Assembly: GCA_016708875.1 (NCBI GenBank)
Contig: JADJFA010000018.1
Location: 28,113 to 92,112, forward strand
From: Lewinellaceae bacterium
GTDB lineage: Bacteria; Bacteroidota; Bacteroidia; Chitinophagales; Saprospiraceae
DNA: 64,000 bases
Direction: 5' to 3'
Both the position numbers and the translations under genes were made by a program. Shown here piece after piece: positions 17,510 to 51,235 of this stretch. How positions within the stretch are numbered: position 1 is the first letter of the stretch; every line of letters starts with the position of its first letter. Under the pieces are notes generated by a model. It saw only the letters and a list, made by a program, of their open reading frames with translations. It ran no database searches and had not been told where the DNA came from.

Positions 17510-18265
17510 ATGTACAAAAACAAAAAAGTTGTTGTCGTGCTCCCGGCATATAATGCCGCCCTCACGCTCGAAAAAACATACCGGGAAATCCCCTTTGAAT
17601 TGGTGGACGAGGTCATCCTATGCGACGACCACAGCAAAGACAATACGGCAGCACTCGCCCTTTCGCTGGGCATCCAGCACGTGATTGTGCACGAAAAAAA
17701 CACAGGCTACGGCGGCAACCAAAAATCGCTCTACAACAAGGCCCTCGAAATCGGTGCGGATATCGTGATCATGCTCCACCCCGACTATCAGTACACGCCA
17801 AAACTCATCCCGAGCATGGTCAATATCATCGGCGAAGAACTCTACCCGGTGGTACTCGGCTCCCGCATTCTCGGCATGGGCGCACGCAAAGGCGGGATGC
17901 CGATGTACAAATACATTGCCAATCGGTTCCTCACATTCGTGCAGAACACCTTGATTCACTACAAGTTATCGGAATACCACACCGGCTACCGGGCCTTCAG
18001 TCGCGAGGTGCTGTTGGGCATAAAATTCAACCAGAACTCCGACGATTTTGTGTTCGACAACGAGATGCTTTCCCAGATTGTCTATGCGGGTTTCGACATT
18101 GGCGAGGTCACTTGCCCCACCAAATACTTCGCAGAAGCCTCGAGTATTAACTTTAGCAGGAGCATGAAATATGGCCTTGGTGTGTTGCGCGTGTCGTTCT
18201 GTCACTGGCTTCAGCGAATGGGGATTTGGAAGTTTGGGATGTATCCGGAAATAGTTTCAAGTTAA
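17510..18265 (+). CDS. Family 2 glycosyltransferase (polyprenol-phosphate sugar synthase-like).
   Basis: 'VVVLPAYNAALTLEKT...VILCDDHSKDNT...GYGGNQK...IVIMLHPDYQY...' is the GT2 DxD/ED architecture. The start abuts the stop of the GT87-like gene (17509/17510). Confidence 0.85.
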   Translation: MYKNKKVVVVLPAYNAALTLEKTYREIPFELVDEVILCDDHSKDNTAALALSLGIQHVIVHEKNTGYGGNQKSLYNKALEIGADIVIMLHPDYQYTPKLIPSMVNIIGEELYPVVLGSRILGMGARKGGMPMYKYIANRFLTFVQNTLIHYKLSEYHTGYRAFSREVLLGIKFNQNSDDFVFDNEMLSQIVYAGFDIGEVTCPTKYFAEASSINFSRSMKYGLGVLRVSFCHWLQRMGIWKFGMYPEIVSS

Positions 18266-18311
18266 AAGTGGCAAGTTTCAAGTCGCCTTCGCGTCTAAAA
18301 CTTGCCACTTT
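18265..18311. terminator. Bidirectional hairpin between convergent genes, containing a CAAGTTT heptamer.
   Basis: 'aaagtggcaagttt caagtcgccttcgcgtct aaaacttgccacttt' has a 14-bp stem. It overlaps the stops of the GT2 gene (18265) and the DUF2721 gene (18278). Confidence 0.6.
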
Positions 18312-25042: not shown

Positions 25043-28000
25043 ATGAAAAAGCAACTTTTACTCCTCGTGTTCCTCATGATGGGTTGGCATTCAGCGTATG
25101 CACAAATCCCTGATGGGAGCATCGCGCCAGATTTTAATGCCACAGATATCCGTGGCTTTTCCACAAACCTTTACACCGTTCTGGATTCAGGTTACACTGT
25201 TTTCTTGGACGTTTCGGCCACCTGGTGCGGCCCTTGCTGGGGCTATCACAATTCTGGCGCGTTTGAAGGCCTCTGGGACCAATATGGCCCTGAAGGTACC
25301 AACGAGGTCCGAATCTATTTTATTGAAGGGGATGCTTCCACCAACGAGGCTTGCCTCCATGGCCCTTCCGGCTGTGTCGGTGGCACCCAAGGTGACTGGA
25401 CTGCAGGAACCCTTTATCCTATTATCCACACGCAAGGGCCTAGTATAGCCAGTAGTTACCAAATCAATTATTACCCCACCATTTTTGGTATTTGCCCACT
25501 CGATAAGAAAGTATATGAGGTGGGGCAGCTGCCTACATCAGGGCTTTATGACTTCATTGGTACTCATTGTTTGCCTCCTCCTTTGGTCATTACCACCAAT
25601 AGTGTTACCAAGATCAAATGCCATGGAACCAACACAGGGGCGATTGATATTACTCCCAGCGGAGGCGTTCCTCCATATACCTATCTTTGGAGCAATGGCG
25701 CTACTACGCAGGATTTGAACAATATCCCGGCAGGAACTTATACCGTTATAGTGCGAGGTCAGGCCGACACCGAAGGCATTTCTGATCCTATAGAAGTAGA
25801 AGGCCCTGCTGCACCGCTCGTGCTGACTTTGGAGAATTCTACTCCGGTAGGCTGCAACGGCCTTCTTGGCACCGCTACAGTGAGTGCTGCTGGTGGCTGG
25901 GATGCCAACTATACCTATAATTGGCAAAATGGCCAATTGGGAGAAACCGCCTACAACCTCACAGTCGGCAACCATATTGTCAGCGTGACCGACGACAATA
26001 ATTGCAAAGTGAGCATTACGGTAAACATGGCGCCCGTCGTGTATCCTACTGCTTCGATCGCCGATCCAAACACCATCACTTGCAGCCAACCCAGTATCCA
26101 ACTCAACGGTACTGCTTCGAGTTCAGGGCCAGATATTGTGTATCAATGGTTCCCCGGCGTCGGCGGGAATATTGTGTCAGGTGGAACTACCACCACACCA
26201 ACCGTAGATGCTCCGGCCAACTACACCATTCAGGTAACAGACTTAGTGACTACTTGCATATCTTATGCGGTCAAAAATGTTCCTGCAAACCTGGTTCAAC
26301 CTGATGCCAATGCAGGGCCGACACAAACCATCTCCTGCCTTGTGCCTGAGGCTACCTTGCAAGGAACAGGCTCGAGCGGTTCCAATTTTAGTTACCTCTG
26401 GACGGTTGCCGATGGAGGCAATATTGTGAGTGGCGGAACTACACTCACCCCTGTGGTGAATGCTGCCGGAACCTATACGTTGAAAGTAACCAACAGCATC
26501 AATGGCTGCACGCGAATTTCGACCACCACAGTGAATGGTATTCCAGCACCTATGCTCAATACCACCAGTGGTACCCTCAATTGTATCGCATCGTCTGTTG
26601 CACTGATCACTACGACCAATGCTGCCAGCCCAACTTTCAAGCTGGACGGGGCCCAATGGTTATACCTCCTCCCTGCAAAGCCCTACGGTGAACGTTTCTG
26701 GATCTTATAACGTCGTGGTTACAGACAGCATCACTACCTGTACCAGCACGGCAACCGCCAACGTAACTTCCAACACCAATGCCCCTGGTGCATCGGCCAC
26801 AGGCAACACACTCACTTGCGTGGTCAATAGCGTGGTGATCACAGGCGCCACCTTGGATACTGCCGCTACATTTGCCTGGACGGGTCCTAATAATTACAAT
26901 TCAAGTTTGCAAAACCCGACCGTGGGCGAGGCAGGTACATACACGCTTGTTGTCACAGATACTTTGAATGGCTGTACTTCCTCTGCTTCAGCCGCAGTTT
27001 TGCTGAACAATACGCCGCCTGTGGCTTCTGTAGTTACGCCCGGCAATCTGAACTGCAACGTATCGCAACTTCAACTCAACGGAACGGGTTCTTCGCAAGG
27101 TTCAAACATCAGTTACGCATGGACTGCCACCGATGGGGGACATATTGTTTCTGGAGAAAATACTCAAACCCCGCTCGTGGATGCGGCTGGTACTTATACC
27201 ATTTTGGTTTCAAATGCTACCAATGGGTGTACCCAAACGGCAACGGCCATTGTGCTGCAAAGCCTCAATGTTACAGCCGCTATTGTTGACCAAAACGATG
27301 TGCTTTGCTTTGGCGGCTCCAACGGAGAAGCCACCGCAGCAGGCGGAGGCGGGAACGGAAATTACACTTATGTCTGGAGCAATGGTGGCAGCACCGCTTC
27401 CATTTCAGGCCTTGGAGTGGGAACTTATGTAGTGGTGGTGACTGATGCGGAAAACTGCTCAGCCACGACTTCTGTACTCGTTTCACAACCCAGCGTTTTG
27501 ACAGCCAACGCCAGCGCTACCGCTCAATCGGGCTTTGGCCAAAATGATGGAACGGCCACTGCCAATCCAACAGGCGGCACCGCCAACTATACTTATGCCT
27601 GGGACAATGGCGGCACAACACAGAGCATTTCGGGCCTGGCTCCCGGGAATTACAACGTGGTCGTCACAGATGCCAATGGTTGCAGTGCGGTGCAAACAGT
27701 TACAGTCAATTCGTTCAACTGCACCCTGGCTGCCAATATTTCAGGAACGAACGTAGTCTGCTTCGGCGCCAATAATGGTACGGCAGAAGTGTTTGTCACA
27801 ACAGGGGCAAATCCTGCCACTTATGCCTGGAGCAATGGAGAAACTACCGCCGCAGTGAGCAATCTTGCTGCCGGACTTTACACCGTCAATATCACCGACG
27901 CCAACAATTGCCCGGCATTGCTTAACATCAGCATCAGCGAGCCAGCCCTTTTGGACGCCAACGCAACTTCCACCTCGGAGTCTGCTCTAGGCGCCAACGA

Positions 28001-29618
28001 CGGCACGGCTACAGCCAACCCGACGGGCGGAACGGGGGCATACAGCTACCTCTGGAACGGCGGCGCCACCACCCAGAGCATCAACAACCTCGTACCTGGA
28101 ACCTACACGGTGGTTGTTACGGATGAAAATGGTTGTACCTCAGAGCAAACGGTGGAAGTATCTTCCTTCCTGTGTGCCATTTCTTCACAACAAACAATCG
28201 TGGACGTGAGCTGCGCGGGTGCGGCCAATGGTTCGGTTACAGTCTCCCTCACGGGCGGAACTGCACCGTTTACATATGCCTGGAGCAATGGTGGTACTAC
28301 TGCGACCATTTCCAACCTCGAAGGCGGTACCTACACCGTCAACGTATTGGATGCAAACGGATGCGACTTCAGCGCCAACGCTGCTGTTGCTGAACCTGCT
28401 CCATATTCTGCCTGGGATGTTCAAACCACTAACCCACTTTGTCCGAACGATGCAACGGGTTCGGCTACGGCCTCCATTACTGGCGGTACCCAGCCATACA
28501 CATTCCTTTGGAGCAATGGTGCGGTGGGCAATACACTTTCCAATGTGCCAACAGGGACGTATACCATACAGGTGACTGACCAAAATGACTGTCAGTCCAG
28601 CACTTCTGTATCGCTCACGTCAACTGACATCGAGGCTCCGACGGTTACCGCCCAGAATGCGACCCTTGCCCTCAATAACAACGGTACGGTTCAGGTGACA
28701 CTGGCTAATCTCTCGGCTCAATTTAGTGACAACTGCGGCATTGCCAGCACGAGCATCCTTCCACAAAATTTTGATTGCCAACAACTTGGCGAACAAACCG
28801 TGACAGTTATAGTAACGGACCTTTCAGGCAATACTGCTGCGGCAACTGCATTGGTAAATGTGGTGGACAACATTGTTCCAGTGTTGACCTGCCCTTCTGA
28901 TATCGTGGCTTGTTCTTACAACAACGTAGTAAACTATGCATCGCCCGTGGCAGAGGACAATTGCCTTTTGGCTGGCAACGGTCAATGGGTAATAGACGGC
29001 CCGGCGAGTGGTTCGATATTCCCCGAAGGGACAACCACCGTGACCTATACTTACACGGACGCAAGCGGCAATGCTGGAAATTGTGCCTTCAATGTCAGGG
29101 TAACGAGCGCAGTAGTGTTCACCAGCGTGAACGTGAACAACGATGTGAACGGTCAGCAGGTCGGCTCTATCGACATCACTGTAGAAGGTGGCACCGGCCC
29201 ATTCCTGTATGAATGGACCGACGAAAATGCCAACGTGATTGCCAACACAGAAGACGTGACGGGCCTCGGCGAAGGCATTTACCGTGTGCAGATTACCGAC
29301 GCGAACGGTTGCATTTACGCCGAGGAAGACATCAAAATGCAAAATACCAGCAGCGCAAAGGAACCGGCTTGGCTCACAGGCATTAGCCTTCAGCCCAACC
29401 CGACAAGCGGCTTCACCAACGTTGTTTTCAGTCTTCCGGTGGCTTCCACTTTGGAAATCTCCCTGATTGACGCAACAGGTCGAATCCTCTTAACCGACAT
29501 CAGCGAGCAGGAAAGCGTGGTCAGAATTGACTGCACAAACCTGCCTGGCGGGGTGTATTATCTGCGTTTCCGCACCGGTCAGGAAGTGGGTGTTCGGAAG
29601 TTGGTGGTTAGTAAGTGA
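25043..29618 (+). CDS. Large T9SS adhesin: N-terminal thioredoxin-fold domain, Ig-like repeats, ~10 SprB repeats, 2 HYR domains and a T9SS CTD. The frame is broken once.
   Basis: Signal 'MKKQLLLLVFLMMGWHSAYAQ'. Trx motif 'FLDVSATWCGPCWGYH'. SprB units such as '[53 protein letters not shown]'. HYR 'APTVTAQNATLALNNNGTVQV...' and 'VPVLTCPSDIVACSYNNVVNYASPVAEDNC...TYTYTDASGNAGNCAFNV'. CTD 'ISLQPNPTSGFTNVVFSLPVASTLEISLIDATGRIL...GVYYLRFRTGQEVGVRKLVVSK'. ORFs 24920..26710 and 26619..29618 join as 'ASPTF|SWTGPNGYTSSLQSP' if the AA at 26639-40 is read as A. Confidence 0.85.
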
Positions 29619-29731
29619 TTAGTTACAAGTTTCAAGTTTCAAGATTCAAGTTTCAAGTTTCAAGTTTCAGGCGCCTGCTCGGAGATACCGGGTGGGCGCT
29701 TGAAACTTTTAACTTGAACTTGTAACTAATT
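29618..29731. repeat. Hairpin with tandem CAAGTTT heptamer arms (REP-like) between the adhesin stop and the RAYT stop.
   Basis: Left arm 'attagttacaagtttcaagtttcaagattcaagtttcaagtttcaagtttcag' holds ~6.5 heptamers. Centre: 'gcgcctgctcggagataccgggtgggcgc'. Right arm 'ttgaaacttttaacttgaacttgtaactaat' holds ~4 units. The outermost 'ttagttacaagtt/aacttgtaactaa' pair perfectly. Confidence 0.9.
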
Positions 29732-30392
29732 ACCCCGCCTTCACAGGATTATGGAGGATGTACTTGACTATCTTTTCAAACTCGGCGGCTTCCTTTACCC
29801 GAAAATCAAAAGTCCGCTCGTGCCAAAATTTCCCTTCCATTTTCACGCTTCCATTTTGGGTATGTTTTTGAAATGTTTTAGGGTCAATGTGCTCTCCTAA
29901 TTGTTGCAATGCTTTTTTCAAGGGCGCTTCCGTGGCATGTTGAATTTCTCCTACAATGTCGCGCAGTGGTTGGTATTGATAACTTTCAAGATCTTCCAAG
30001 ACTGGCGTGTCGGCCATTGAGCTGTGCAAATCCAACAGCAAATGGACGTGGTTGGGCAGGATGGAATAGGCCAGCAGTGCATAATCCGACCCATCGCGAC
30101 GAAGTATTTCGTCCGCAAGGATTTTGGCCAAAGCCGGTTCACGAAGGTAGGTATGGCCGTATTTTTCCAAGTCCAGTGCATCATCATAGCGAGCGAAAAG
30201 GCGTTTGCGGGCTTGCCTCAATTGTGCTGTACGATCAGGATGTTGGGCGAATTTGAGCTGTTTGCTGTAGTATTGAAGTGCAAGATTTTGCCCAAAACTC
30301 TCTGGCAGGGCATTCCGCAGCCGCAGGGTGACAAAGAAAACGCCTTCGAGTGAGGAGGGTAAGGATAGGGTAGGGGACTTGAAGGAATTCAT
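29730..30392 (-). CDS. REP-associated tyrosine transposase-like protein (IS200/IS605 TnpA-type HUH/Y1 enzyme).
   Basis: 221 aa from the ATG at 30392; the ORF extension to 30530 looks non-coding. N-terminal strand 'GVFFVTLRLRNALP', HUH motif 'ILPNHVHLLLDL' and C-terminal Tyr motif 'KYILHNPVKAG'. It is single-copy with no IS ends of the usual kind, but repeat hairpins sit on both sides. Confidence 0.7.
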   Translation of the reverse strand: MNSFKSPTLSLPSSLEGVFFVTLRLRNALPESFGQNLALQYYSKQLKFAQHPDRTAQLRQARKRLFARYDDALDLEKYGHTYLREPALAKILADEILRRDGSDYALLAYSILPNHVHLLLDLHSSMADTPVLEDLESYQYQPLRDIVGEIQHATEAPLKKALQQLGEHIDPKTFQKHTQNGSVKMEGKFWHERTFDFRVKEAAEFEKIVKYILHNPVKAG

Positions 30393-30413
30393 TGGTGCGG
30401 TGGGTTTTGTATT

Positions 30414-30421
30414 CAAAAATA
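30414..30421 (-). promoter_or_regulatory. Candidate -7 box (TATTTTTG) for the RAYT-like gene.
   Basis: Fits TAnnTTTG, 21 nt upstream of the ATG at 30392. Confidence 0.35.
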
Positions 30422-30538
30422 AGGGAAAAAATGTGACATCCGTTCTCGAAGACCTGAACATCTTTGAGATGTGGCTGCGGTGAGGAAGCTGCTGCTTAAA
30501 AAGTGAAATGCATGGCAGAAAAATCTCCATTTTGCACT

Positions 30539-30546
30539 TAACTTTG
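30539..30546 (+). promoter_or_regulatory. Candidate -7 box (TAACTTTG) for the DUF433 gene.
   Basis: Exact TAnnTTTG, 17 nt upstream of the ATG at 30564. The same octamer recurs upstream of three other genes in the window. Confidence 0.4.
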
Positions 30547-30563
30547 TAAAAAAATACTCAACC

Positions 30564-30893
30564 ATGACAGCATTGGAAAGGGCCACCGCAATATTGCCCG
30601 ACATGTCGCAAAGCGAGATAGCACAATTGGTTCAAAGGGCAGCCAGCAGAATCTCTGAAGATTTCCCGGGCATTGAAAAAACTCCGGGCGTTTGCGGAGG
30701 AAGCGCGTGCATTATTCGCACAAGGATTCCTGTTTGGTCTATCATCGAATACATTCAGATGGGCGTTGGAAAGGAGAAAATGCTCCAAAACTTCCCTTCT
30801 CTTCGTGCCCAAGATTTGGCAAATGCCTGGGCATATTACGATGCCAATAAGGAAGAAATTGACAGTGAAATCAAAGAAAACAACGAAGACTGA
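30564..30893 (+). CDS. DUF433 domain protein (antitoxin-like HTH).
   Basis: 109 aa. 'PGVCGGSACIIRTRIPVWSIIEYIQMGVGKEKMLQNFPSLRAQDLANAWAYY' is the DUF433 core pattern. Confidence 0.7.
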   Translation: MTALERATAILPDMSQSEIAQLVQRAASRISEDFPGIEKTPGVCGGSACIIRTRIPVWSIIEYIQMGVGKEKMLQNFPSLRAQDLANAWAYYDANKEEIDSEIKENNED

Positions 30894-30967
30894 ACCTTTA
30901 TTAAAGTCCTTCTTCAATCTGGAGAAGATGTCTCCAGCCAATTAATTCGAGTCTATCGAGAGCAGAG

Positions 30968-30992
30968 ATAGTTTTGAACTTGAAACTTTCAA
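30968..30992. repeat. Solo copy or remnant of the AAACTTG/CAAGTTT heptamer repeat.
   Basis: 'tagttttgaacttgaaactttcaac' resembles the right arm of the 29618-29731 hairpin ('cttgaaacttttaacttgaacttg'). Confidence 0.5.
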
Positions 30993-31256
30993 CTACTCCC
31001 CACTCTTCTTCCACTTCTCCATCTGCTCCCGCGCATTATCCGATAACACCGCCGGGTCATATTCCAGTTTGGAAAGAATGTCCAGCAGCGTGTTGATCCT
31101 GGCTTCCACGTCAAAAAACTTGTTGACCACGACCACACGGCGGCTTTCCACGAGGCAGTAGCCACTCTGGAAACTACCCTTCTCGTAACGGACAGTGTAG
31201 TCGAGCTCGTCGAAGACGTCTTCAATTTTTTTGAGGGTTGTTTGCGTGTAGCGCAT
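30993..31256 (-). CDS. Small conserved hypothetical protein.
   Basis: 87 aa from 'MRYTQTTLKKIEDVFDELDYTVRYEKGSFQSGYCLVESRRVVVVNKFF...'. No recognised domain. Confidence 0.45.
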   Translation of the reverse strand: MRYTQTTLKKIEDVFDELDYTVRYEKGSFQSGYCLVESRRVVVVNKFFDVEARINTLLDILSKLEYDPAVLSDNAREQMEKWKKSGE

Positions 31257-31395
31257 ATTGTATCGGGTTTTCGCAGCAATTTTGTGGGGCAAAAATACCA
31301 CGCTCAAAGTCCAAACTTTCCGAAAGTTTTGCTTTCGGATTTCAAACTACTGAGGTTTCTAAAACCTCATGGGTTTTTAACACAACAACTATATC

Positions 31396-32028
31396 ATGAA
31401 AAAACTCCCTTTCCTCCTCCTCGCATTTCTCCCCATCGTCCTTGCTGCTCAACCCCGTTTTCGCGCAGGCGCAGTGCTGGGACTTACCGCTTCCCAGATT
31501 GACGGCGACCTTTCGGCTGGCTACAACAAACTTGGGTTCCAGGGTGGGCTTCGCGTTATCACCCGACTAAAGGGCCGCACGGAAGCCAGCATGGAATTCC
31601 TCTTTTCTCAGCGCGGCTGTCAAAACGAACTCATTCCGAGCGAATACGACCCCAATCCATTTGCACTGACACTCAACTACGTGGAGGTGCCGGTGCAATG
31701 GCATTTCAAAGATTGGCTCATTGAATACGATGAGGAAAATCTCAATTATTACAAAGTTTCTTTCAATATCGGGCTTTCCTATGCACGTTTGATCAGCTCC
31801 AAGGTGGACGACGATTTCAACTGGCTCAATGGCGTAGCGCCTGATTACCTGAAAAAAAACGACCTCGGCATTGTGTTGGGCGCCAATTTTTTTGCCACCC
31901 GGAATTTGGGCTTTACGTTTCGCTGGAACCGCTCGTTTCTGCTGTTGTACGATTCCCGGAAATCCCCTCGTGGCGGAAAAAGCTGGAACAGTCACAATTT
32001 GAATTTCCAGACGGTGTACTTGTTCTAG
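31396..32028 (+). CDS. Outer-membrane beta-barrel protein (PorT/OMP_b-brl_2-like).
   Basis: Signal 'MKKLPFLLLAFLPIVLAAQ'. Alternating beta-strand pattern with a terminal '...NLNFQTVYLF' aromatic end. Confidence 0.65.
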   Translation: MKKLPFLLLAFLPIVLAAQPRFRAGAVLGLTASQIDGDLSAGYNKLGFQGGLRVITRLKGRTEASMEFLFSQRGCQNELIPSEYDPNPFALTLNYVEVPVQWHFKDWLIEYDEENLNYYKVSFNIGLSYARLISSKVDDDFNWLNGVAPDYLKKNDLGIVLGANFFATRNLGFTFRWNRSFLLLYDSRKSPRGGKSWNSHNLNFQTVYLF

Positions 32029-32882: not shown

Positions 32883-33022
32883 AAAATTAAACCGCAAAAT
32901 GTAAAACCGGAGAACAGGAAAATGTAAAACCAAACGACGGAAACCCAAGCAGTAAGAACAGTTTAACCCCTCTTAGTTTTAAATTTTGCGGTTCTCCGGT
33001 TTTACATTTTGCGGTTTAAATT
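32883..33022. repeat. Post-gene long hairpin (AAAATGTAAAACC / CCGCAAAAT motif arms).
   Basis: 'aaaattaaaccgcaaaatgtaaaaccggagaac ...~65 nt... gttctccggttttacattttgcggtttaaatt' has ~32-bp near-perfect arms. The spacer carries an extra 'aaaatgtaaaacc' copy. Confidence 0.9.
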
Positions 33023-33550: not shown

Positions 33551-33660
33551 AATTACGATTTTGGAATTACGATTTACGATTTTGTTGATCCGAAAAGGCA
33601 TGATTCTAACCTTCTTCGGATCAAAAAATCGTAAATCGTAAATCGTAATTCCAAAATCCA
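33551..33660. repeat. Post-gene hairpin with tandem ACGATTT heptamer arms.
   Basis: 'ttttggaattacgatttacgattttgttgatccgaa ...loop... ttcggatcaaaaaatcgtaaatcgtaaatcgtaattccaaaa'. It starts 4 nt after the ogt stop. Confidence 0.9.
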
Positions 33661-33946
33661 AAACCGTTTCTCATGAAAGTTAAACCGTTCCCTCAAAAGA
33701 GAAAATTGCTGTATCCTTGCCAAAAATTTTCAACTAGTTTTGTCGAACCTTTTTGAAGAATTATTTTCTTTAAAAATTGAAAATCAATTGTTTAGCGAAT
33801 TAGTTCGGGGTTTAATCAAAGAAGGCAAACCCTCAAAATCTATTTGAGATAAAATCTGGCCTTTTATTTGTTGAGGCCGTTTTTCAGCCCCGTCCAAACC
33901 AACCATACCCCCCGAACCAACTAACCGGAAACATCCCAACCGCTCA

Positions 33947-42573: not shown

Positions 42574-42785
42574 TGAGTCATCCCGAATTTTGATCCAATT
42601 GGTTTTGATTGCTGATTGATGAGTACATGAATGATGATTGTTGATGGAATGGTGGATTGATAATGGCCGATGTGCCGCCATCGTCAATAATTACATCGTC
42701 CCTTTACATCAAAAATCATCATTCATGTACTCATCAATCGTCAATCAATCAAAATCAGAGAAATCTCAAAATTCGGGATGACTCC
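42574..42785. mobile_element. Nested-palindromic MITE-like element, copy C (a diverged family member).
   Basis: Outer arms 'gagtcatcccgaattttga'/'tcaaaattcgggatgactc'. Inner arms 'ttgattgctgattgatgagtacatgaatgatgattgttgatgg'/'catcaaaaatcatcattcatgtactcatcaatcgtcaatcaatcaa'. By eye the inner arms are largely identical to the arms of copies A and B. Confidence 0.8.
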
Positions 42786-48826: not shown

Positions 48827-48833
48827 GTGGGTG

Positions 48834-49009
48834 ATTTTGATTGATGATTGATGAATACATGAGTGTTGATTTTTGATGGAATTGAAGATTGGGGTATTTA
48901 CGATGTACGATTTAGCCAACTTATCGTGATAAATCATCCATAAAACATCAAAAAATCACCCATTCCATCAACAATCAACACTCATGTATTCATCAATCAT
49001 CAATCAAAA
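48834..49009. mobile_element. Nested-palindromic MITE-like element, copy A.
   Basis: Arms 'ttttgattgatgattgatgaatacatgagtgttgatttttgatgga' / 'tccatcaacaatcaacactcatgtattcatcaatcatcaatcaaaa' match at 45/46 positions. An ~85-bp core lies between them. Confidence 0.9.
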
Positions 49010-49054
49010 TAGCCCTGCCCAAATATCTAAATATCCCAACAACTCAATCTCCCT

Positions 49055-50995: not shown

Positions 50996-51023
50996 ATCCT
51001 GAATTTTACGCATTCTGTGGTTT

Positions 51024-51199
51024 GTTTGATTGATGATTGATGAATACATGAGTGTTGATTTTTGATGGACATGGGTGATTTTTGATTTTTTATGGATGAT
51101 TTATCACAATGAGTAAGCTAAATCATCCATCGTAAATACCCCAATCTGCCATGTCCATCAAAAATCAACACTCATGTATTCATCAATCATCAATCAAAA
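51024..51199. mobile_element. Nested-palindromic MITE-like element, copy B, with its core inverted relative to copy A.
   Basis: Perfect ~50-bp arms 'ttttgattgatgattgatgaatacatgagtgttgatttttgatggacatgg'/revcomp. The reverse complement of the core ('cagattggggtatttacgatggatgatttagc...gtgataaatcatccataaaaaatcaaaaatcac') aligns with the core of copy A ('agattggggtatttacgatgtacgatttagc...gtgataaatcatccataaaacatcaaaaaatcac'). Confidence 0.9.
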
Positions 51200-51235
51200 T
51201 AGCCCAACAATTGCAACCGTTTTTAATATCTACCT

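Follow-up and report, generated by a model that had tools for sequence, protein, structure and literature searches.

Did the transposase-like enzyme encoded beside a palindromic repeat make that repeat? The question is raised by a locus of a Lewinellaceae bacterium (assembly GCA_016708875.1, contig JADJFA010000018.1). It was analysed within a stretch of 64,000 nt, positions 28,113-92,112 of the forward strand, which is referred to here as the window. An open reading frame (ORF) on the minus strand of the window (29730..30392) encodes a protein of 220 aa that resembles the RAYTs, the tyrosine transposases associated with repetitive extragenic palindromes (REPs). Its end meets a 114-nt hairpin with arms built of CAAGTTT-type heptamers. 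The initial annotation took these repeats to bracket the gene as its REPs and the enzyme to be what spreads them. A different reading was reached here, with a probability of about 0.68. In this reading the gene is a domesticated descendant of a RAYT, the hairpin arose by a local template-switch inverted duplication, and no REP was moved by the enzyme.

The hairpin between two convergent stop codons

The 114-nt nested hairpin separates the stops of the RAYT-like gene and of a convergent gene. The 3' part of the latter (26619..29618, plus strand) encodes an SprB-like giant surface protein secreted by the type IX secretion system. The SprB-like stop is TGA in the window (29616-29618) and TAA in relatives. 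The left arm of the hairpin (29619..29669, plus strand), as delimited by the alignment of orthologous loci, begins directly after this stop and has seven tandem heptamers, TTAGTTA followed by CAAGTTT-type units. Next comes an inner GC-rich hairpin, GGCGCCTGCTCGG..CCGGGTGGGCGC (29670..29699), which is orthologous to AAGCGCCCGCCCGG..CCGGGCGGGCGCTT in all relatives and is probably the intrinsic terminator that serves the two convergent genes in both directions. The right arm (29700..29733) repeats the left arm in inverted orientation and is specific to this lineage, as evidenced by its outer 17 nt and the locus alignments. It has only about four degenerate units, making the hairpin asymmetric. 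Folding of 29616-29735 gave -59.2 kcal/mol compared to -23.9 ± 3.2 kcal/mol for shuffled sequences (z = -11.2), confirming that the heptamer hairpin is real. The stop codon of the ORF does meet the right arm as annotated, the TAA (TTA on the plus strand, 29730-29732) falling within it. The GT[AG]G foot of canonical REPs was not present at the hairpin. An Rfam scan of 29000-31500 returned only a spurious mir-605 match far under threshold.

An inverted arm in a long-read metagenome-assembled genome (MAG) might be a fold-back chimera produced by sequencing or assembly. Logan contigs from two studies spanned the junction (X1, 29300-29924; X2, 29640-30089). They covered the right arm and the end of the gene with 0 gaps and 3-5 substitutions. 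The hairpin is therefore not an assembly fold-back, and an artefact is hardly credible. Metatranscriptome contigs, which can demonstrate the presence of RNA but never its absence, reached the SprB-like 3' end up to 29643-29667, placing the first units of the array within transcribed sequence.

The history of the hairpin was read from orthologous loci. Twelve syntenic loci reach the SprB-like gene (L001, L003, L005, L006, L008, L010-L013, L015, L136 and L137), and in all of them the SprB-like stop is followed by a heptamer array and then by the same GC-rich hairpin. The array has 2 to ~35 units of the form NNRAGTT on the SprB sense strand and varies in both length and unit. Units included AACTTGT, AACTTGA, AACTCAT, a 14-mer in L012 and others, and the close relative L003 has a CAAATCC-type unit. 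The post-SprB array of L012 (5711-5953) was found expanded to ~200 nt of the 14-nt unit AACTCGTTACTTTC, and such arrays therefore expand fast. The GC core and the SprB-side array of the window aligned base for base with the relatives in the multiple alignment. Both the core and the left arm were therefore already part of the ancestral locus. The inverted array on the RAYT side was absent in all 12 syntenic relatives, and the window alone has the right arm.

At its other end the hairpin has replaced part of the RAYT-like gene. The coding sequence of the window follows its orthologues as far as GTGAAGGCGG and then continues as GGTAATTAGTTACAAGTTCAAGTTAAAAGTTTCAAG, the reverse complement of the SprB-side sequence. 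Positions 29717-29733 are the reverse complement of 29615-29631 at 16/17 positions. The single mismatch is the A found in the TAA stop of SprB in L001, L136 and L137, where the SprB-like gene of the window has TGA. This inverted match covers the stop codon, and the TAA of the ORF (29730-29732) is therefore an inverted copy of the ancestral SprB stop. Some 130-230 nt was replaced, comprising the final 15 codons (ELVKDWVDWNFSYWPE) together with intergenic sequence on the 3' side; the lost intergenic sequence contains a CACATAG-type hairpin in L001 and L003. As a result the C-terminus of the ORF is ~15 residues shorter than in its orthologues, stopping at ..HNPVKAG* where they run on with ..KAELVKDWVDWNFSYWPE. 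The right arm has about four units, like the array of L137, and the left arm has seven, which indicates later slippage growth of the left arm. The proposal that the CAAGTTT repeats bracket the gene as its REPs did not survive this comparison; the left arm and core are the 3' region of SprB, and the right arm was copied from it locally and inverted.

We infer a replication fold-back, the simplest mechanism, together with the order of the later steps. Ancestrally, the SprB-like TAA stop would have been followed by a heptamer array prone to slippage, and this by the GC-rich terminator hairpin. A fold-back (intra-strand template switch) at the terminator hairpin would have copied the array and the SprB stop, inverted, onto the other side. 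The polymerase would then have rejoined its template inside the RAYT-like gene through 1-2 nt of microhomology, with the loss of ~130-230 nt. The copied TAA would by chance have been in frame and become the stop of the shortened ORF. Afterwards the left array would have grown from about four to seven units by slippage, and the SprB stop would have changed from TAA to TGA.

Insertion of the whole hairpin into the 3' end of the RAYT-like gene was considered as well, as a mobile palindrome resembling a miniature inverted-repeat transposable element and mobilised by some other enzyme. Such an insertion would not be expected to align base for base with one-armed relatives, as the GC core and SprB-side array do, or to reach the locus-specific SprB stop and the coding G before it. 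No target-site duplication was visible at the hairpin. This explanation is unlikely in spite of the genuine multi-copy hairpin families of the genome (TGATTGA type, at 42.6, 48.8 and 51.0 kb) and of a TTACGAT hairpin with clean empty sites in relatives, both of which speak for mobile palindromes.

The RAYT-like gene and its clade

The ORF belongs to the HUH/Y1 superfamily (TnpA-Y1, COG1943 'RayT') and is a divergent member of the RAYT kind. It contains the motifs PNHVHLLL and KYILHNPVKAG, with the HUH histidines at H115 and H117 and a tyrosine at the catalytic position (Y211). A 266-aa version with an upstream start was rejected. Every orthologue begins at MNS..., and the upstream extension is therefore unsupported. 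The ORF matched Pfam Y1_Tnp with E = 4e-4 (20.9 bits, under the cut-off of 23) and NCBIfam REP_Tyr_transpos with E = 3.5e-11 (43.2 bits, under the cut-off of 80), so that both matches were significant and both fell below the curated cut-offs. Two distant homologues (P0035 and P0042) narrowly passed the Pfam cut-off. When the family profile was compared to the PDB the top match was Escherichia coli TnpA-REP, 4ER8 (E = 4.5e-9), with the strand-1, HUH and Tyr-helix blocks aligned. An AF2 model of the ORF (pLDDT 81) had 4er8_A as its best Foldseek match (E = 1.2e-4), followed by the ISDra2, IS200 and IS608 transposases, and the top 30 matches were all Y1 transposases. The ORF was identified as a RAYT-type Y1 HUH enzyme because 4ER8 was the best match by both sequence profile and fold. 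The superfamily is defined by an HUH motif on a beta-strand and a single catalytic Tyr on a C-terminal helix within an RRM-like fold, and the protein agrees with this: PNHVHLL does not vary within the clade, and the last helix carries Y211. The tyrosine motif of the ORF (YILHNP) is of the form Y-x-x-x-N-P, which marks class-2 TnpA-Y1, Y-x-x-x-Q being the mark of class-1 IS200 (PMC6006769).

The contacts to the GTAG guide that are kept in REP-associated subclasses are W94, Q95, E/D100, H101 and R104 (PMC6006769). These positions are in E. coli numbering and were transferred through the alignment of the profile with 4ER8 and that publication. The ORF reads W-H...D-F..K at the guide positions and so lacks the canonical REP-guide residues. 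Q95->H and H101->F are invariant across the clade, and the position of R104 is variable (25 orthologues). Phenylalanine occupies the catalytic Tyr position in 3/25 orthologues (P0010, P0013 and P0018) and likewise in the L008 orthologue. Several orthologues have a degenerate NP motif. Distant homologues of 31-38% identity retain both WQ..DH..R and the Tyr. The annotation of a RAYT-like HUH transposase thus stood as far as the superfamily and the closest match are concerned and did not extend to the curated families or the REP-guide residues. The altered guide positions and the Tyr->Phe changes fit a domesticated derivative with a changed substrate or role. By analogy, the protein has probably kept an ability to bind or cut single-stranded DNA hairpins.

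A search of 1.84 billion representatives returned 6,407 relatives, of which only ~11 were representatives of the window's own clade. Clade members with names were all Saprospiraceae, Lewinellaceae or Chitinophagales MAGs. The gene was found at 12 loci in 12 GTDB species with one copy in each, and no paralogue was found within the 64-kb window. The order PdaC, outer membrane protein, orf104, RAYT-like gene and, facing it, SprB-like gene was kept in at least 10 of the 12 genomes. The syntenic upstream neighbour, orf104 (30993..31307, minus strand), was defined from the orthologous loci as a small conserved Saprospiraceae gene, probably of 87 aa. The RAYT-like gene is single-copy, vertically inherited and carried on neither an insertion sequence (IS) nor a plasmid in the genomes sampled (12 genomes, with the window standing for its own genome). 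No tnpB was found in its neighbourhood, either in the window or at the loci of the relatives. One fixed syntenic locus and the lack of a nearby tnpB set it apart from an IS200/IS605 insertion sequence. A more distant genome (L138) has matching synteny with the RAYT-like gene missing at the site. The ORF is best read as a domesticated, chromosomally fixed descendant of a class-2 TnpA-Y1/RAYT enzyme in a small clade specific to Saprospiraceae.

The RAYT-like gene is under purifying selection. The ratio of nonsynonymous to synonymous substitution rates (dN/dS) ranged from 0.14 to 0.31 and was 0.22 between two tail-less copies, those of the window and L136. The ORF is unbroken in all of the loci, numbering at least 14, and the HUH motif and more than 25 further positions are invariant among the orthologues. 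The sequence TATTTTTG lies ~20 nt upstream of the ATG (30414..30421, minus strand), and this box and a short leader are kept in all orthologous loci. It matches the Bacteroidota sigma-A -7 box consensus, TAnnTTTG, and is a putative conserved promoter box belonging to the gene itself. A conserved element of ~35 nt (..GCCAAGTTATGGTGGATAAACAAGAT..) was also seen ~40-90 nt upstream of the ATG in L001, L005, L006, L008, L014, L015 and L137. This element precedes the promoter-like box; in the window, L136 and L003 other sequence takes its place.

The gene could instead be a decaying, functionless relic, with the truncation as one step of its loss. C-terminal tails have been altered, by loss or replacement, independently in ~6 lineages (the window and five others), and the end of the gene has therefore been repeatedly eroded or remodelled. 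The Tyr->Phe changes and the degenerate NP motifs are in keeping with decay. Four metatranscriptomes covered the neighbouring SprB-like gene and had no RNA contigs over the RAYT-like gene, which is weak evidence as contigs cannot prove absence. A relic is nevertheless improbable given the low dN/dS, which holds even between the tail-less copies, the unbroken ORFs, the invariant positions and the conserved promoter-like box.

Hairpins with and without the enzyme

Two further sites had been assigned to the same heptamer family as the hairpin. The first is a 'solo' motif, TTGAAAGTTTCAAGTTCAAAA (30972..30992, minus strand), of two or three degenerate units directly after the orf104 stop in the sense orientation. 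It was assessed by motif match and by comparison with relatives. It matches a 14-mer at all but 2 positions, and 0.9 such matches per window are expected by chance. The motif is identical in L136, whose RAYT-like protein is 90% identical, and there it faces an intact DUF5615 gene. It is therefore ancestral local sequence of the orf104/DUF5615 junction, and not a same-family copy flanking the RAYT. The second site, described as a third member at 18265-18311, is a separate small hairpin with the stem GTGGCAAGTTT/AAACTTGCCAC (18266..18311, plus strand; z = -8.6). It is preceded by xxxAAG heptamers and lies right after the stop of the ORF at 17510..18265. With just one or two CAAGTTT units it shares the general architecture of the 29.6-kb hairpin and is not a copy of it.

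The supposed pairing of the RAYT with a DUF433 gene also dissolved. The antitoxin-like DUF433 gene (30564..30893, plus strand), identified by domain search and comparison with relatives, lies in an inserted DUF433/DUF5615 cassette that is present in only some relatives. The PIN-like DUF5615 has lost ~270 nt relative to L136 (2550-2894), and the last 25 codons remain in the window (30894..30971, plus strand). DUF433 is therefore an orphaned cassette partner and not a companion of the RAYT-like gene.

The density of hairpins was compared across the syntenic regions. Long inverted repeats were frequent only in the window and its closest relatives, numbering 33 per 64 kb in the window, 7 in L001, 11 in L003 and 3 in 6.7 kb in L136. 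L005, L011, L013 and L137 keep an intact gene and have 0-2 per 10-20 kb. Long inverted repeats are likewise nearly absent in the syntenic region of L138-L140.

The heptamer itself is widespread. Exact (CAAGTTT)3 arrays occurred in more than 120 metagenome contigs with GC contents of 21-63% from soils, sediments, rumen and sludge. A set of 80 such contigs (L016-L095, 494 kb in total) was examined, and an inverted array was present within ~260 nt in 25 of them. The first unit of the metagenomic arrays was often a stop codon (TAAGTTT, TAGGTTT or TGAGTTT), and several CAAGTTT/AAACTTG hairpins had an inverted stop-bearing unit at the far end too, as convergent gene pairs predict. Stop-codon-adjacent heptamer-armed hairpins were thus found at this locus and in the metagenomes, many of the 25 hairpins there bearing stops on both sides. 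No RAYT-like homologue was found in the 494 kb around the 80 loci. The array was also abundant in activated-sludge metagenomes. Word depth over 29608-29695 was 130-900 in runs X1-X4 compared to ~4-11 on the flanks, and loose ends of the array led to many unrelated sequences. The high depth means that the array is present at many loci or in many sludge organisms.

Genes without hairpin richness and hairpins without the gene argue against a specific link between the two. The proposal that this enzyme stands behind the CAAGTTT hairpins was accordingly dropped, hairpin density being untied to the gene and the 80 metagenomic loci having no homologue. An active RAYT with the CAAGTTT hairpins as its cognate flanking REP or REPIN, spread by the enzyme as a REPtron, would explain several features of the locus. 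These are the RAYT-like fold and motifs, a hairpin abutting the stop codon, an array at 40-80x the flank word depth in sludge metagenomes and hence multi-copy somewhere, and an empty site in L138 that lacks gene and array together. The flanks of the gene, however, vary among orthologues, have no GTAG foot and carry a 5' motif that is degenerate and ancestral, and the third site is degenerate as well. The guide residues are replaced, the nucleophile is Phe in some orthologues, and four relatives (L005, L011, L013 and L137) keep the gene without being rich in hairpins. Widely differing taxa have (CAAGTTT)n hairpins without any homologue close by. A REPtron would also have cut short its own enzyme with a hairpin in which the left arm and core have their orthologue in the 3' region of SprB and the right arm carries the SprB stop. 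This model is very improbable. The evidence similarly disfavours an indirect role in which the HUH protein of the locus would nick such hairpins and thereby set off inverted duplications, and we give that idea hardly any credit.

Domestication and local inverted duplication remain the preferred reading, and several points weigh against it. The template switch is deduced from one end-state, with no intermediate seen. L001, L003 and L006 have a heptamer- or octamer-armed hairpin directly 3' of the gene, in the fashion of a REP. At the empty site of L138 the RAYT-like gene and the heptamer array are both missing, in a single genome that is more distant and has a different terminator. Some hairpins here, such as the TTACGAT hairpin after ogt, may have been inserted rather than home-grown. 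The enzyme may also act in trans on other hairpin families of this genome, for example TGATTGA.

Local birth was also considered for two further hairpins. The PdaC hairpin (32884-33022 in the window) has the same arms in the window, L136 (556-688) and L003 (3997-4110). The loop of ~50 nt has opposite orientations in the window and L136, and L005 retains one arm only. The flipped loop and the one-armed relative therefore indicate rapid in-situ palindrome dynamics at an orthologous site, and an extension of local birth to the PdaC hairpin fits. A nested TTACGAT-armed hairpin after an ogt-like gene (33551-33667) was compared with L003, L136, L005, L009, L011-L013 and L138 and was found only in the closest relatives of the window. 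The site is clean and empty in more distant relatives, and this presence/absence pattern is compatible with insertion and with local growth alike. Long palindromes of the TGATTGA type form a multi-copy family with three copies within 9 kb (42605-42748, 48829-49015 and 51012-51211). A PF05635-like gene (23S intervening-sequence four-helix-bundle) was not found in the window with a motif regular expression, a weak test.

Related systems and significance

The closest known systems are E. coli TnpA-REP (4ER8), subclasses 2.4 and 2.7 of class-2 TnpA-Y1 (Quentin et al., 2018, PMC6006769) and the RAYT groups of Bertels et al. (2017, PMC5581495). RAYT subclasses lacking an association with REPs, and atypical flanking structures in Bacteroidetes, have already been described (PMC6006769, PMC5581495). 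The ORF shares NHVH, the C-terminal Y-x-x-x-N-P helix and the W at the W94 position with TnpA-REP and the RAYTs. The RAYT-like gene likewise occurs once per genome sampled, is inherited vertically and has no mobile unit. The full WQ..DH..R guide signature is shared by the distant members of the family only. Unlike TnpA-REP the ORF has no N-terminal RRNLPH motif, and it has two inserts, one of ~21 aa ahead of the W motif and a long helical one following strand 1. It also differs in scoring below the family cut-offs, in Q95->H, H101->F and an unconserved R104, in the Tyr->Phe change of some orthologues, in having no flanking REP that is conserved and bears a GT[AG]G foot and in the deleted C-terminal tail of the window copy. 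The TnpA proteins of IS200/IS605 elements (IS608, ISDra2) have the same fold (Foldseek matches 2-30), the HUH motif and the single Tyr. They differ in belonging to class 1 (Y---Q), the ORF being of class 2 (Y---NP) (PMC6006769). The RAYT-like gene, unlike those elements, is fixed in synteny and has no multiple copies, no gene-linked left-end and right-end (LE/RE) hairpins and no tnpB.

The array has counterparts among simple sequence repeats (SSRs). Rehm et al. (2015, PMC4692102) describe heptamer SSRs within ~50 bp after stop codons, with the unit GGGAATC in Xanthomonas and GGGGAYT in Nostoc. Those repeats and the present locus have in common 7-nt units, variable copy number, a position after the stop, transcription and a frequent location between convergent genes (PMC4692102). 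CAAGTTT units differ in being A/T-rich, so that no G-quadruplex is possible. The array here also differs in having an inverted array as its pairing partner on the far side of a terminator hairpin, and many different units occur within this one genome. The heptamers of cyanobacterial short tandemly repeated repetitive (STRR) sequences are comparable short repeats.

Template-switch mutations associated with quasipalindromes were reportedly described by Ripley in 1982 and by the Lovett laboratory in E. coli, and Monttinen and Loytynoja in 2022 are said to have found that template switching can create RNA hairpins. The event proposed here would resemble these in being a single event by which one-sided sequence beside a hairpin becomes a longer, perfect inverted repeat and the replaced sequence is lost. 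It would be larger (~35 nt copied and 130-230 nt lost) and involve a tandem-repeat arm, and unlike the quasipalindrome mutations it would give a protein-coding gene a new end at a copied stop codon.

A RAYT-like gene near a hairpin is no proof that the enzyme made the hairpin, and comparison of orthologous loci can separate the two. A Saprospiraceae clade of domesticated RAYT descendants has been defined in which the guide residues are lost, the nucleophile is sometimes lost and selection persists. The clade is further evidence for roles of many RAYT-like proteins other than the movement of REPs. Heptamer-armed, stop-hugging palindromes are a poorly understood class of repeat found in many phyla. 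Judged from its sequence the locus appears to be a clear-cut case of palindrome birth through inverted duplication, in which a gene was clipped and then re-terminated by a copied stop. A testable origin is thereby offered for one heptamer-armed palindrome, namely inverted duplication across a terminator with capture of the neighbour's stop. That such palindromes generally arise by fold-back copying across a terminator, with no dedicated transposase, is a tentative extension and at present the less probable outcome. If general, terminator-crossing duplication would explain heptamer-armed palindromes, a class only partly described in the literature. If true, the stop codons at both outer ends of the palindromes would be explained, the inverted copy overwriting the end of the convergent gene and supplying it with a copied stop codon, and this locus would be the first example caught in the act.

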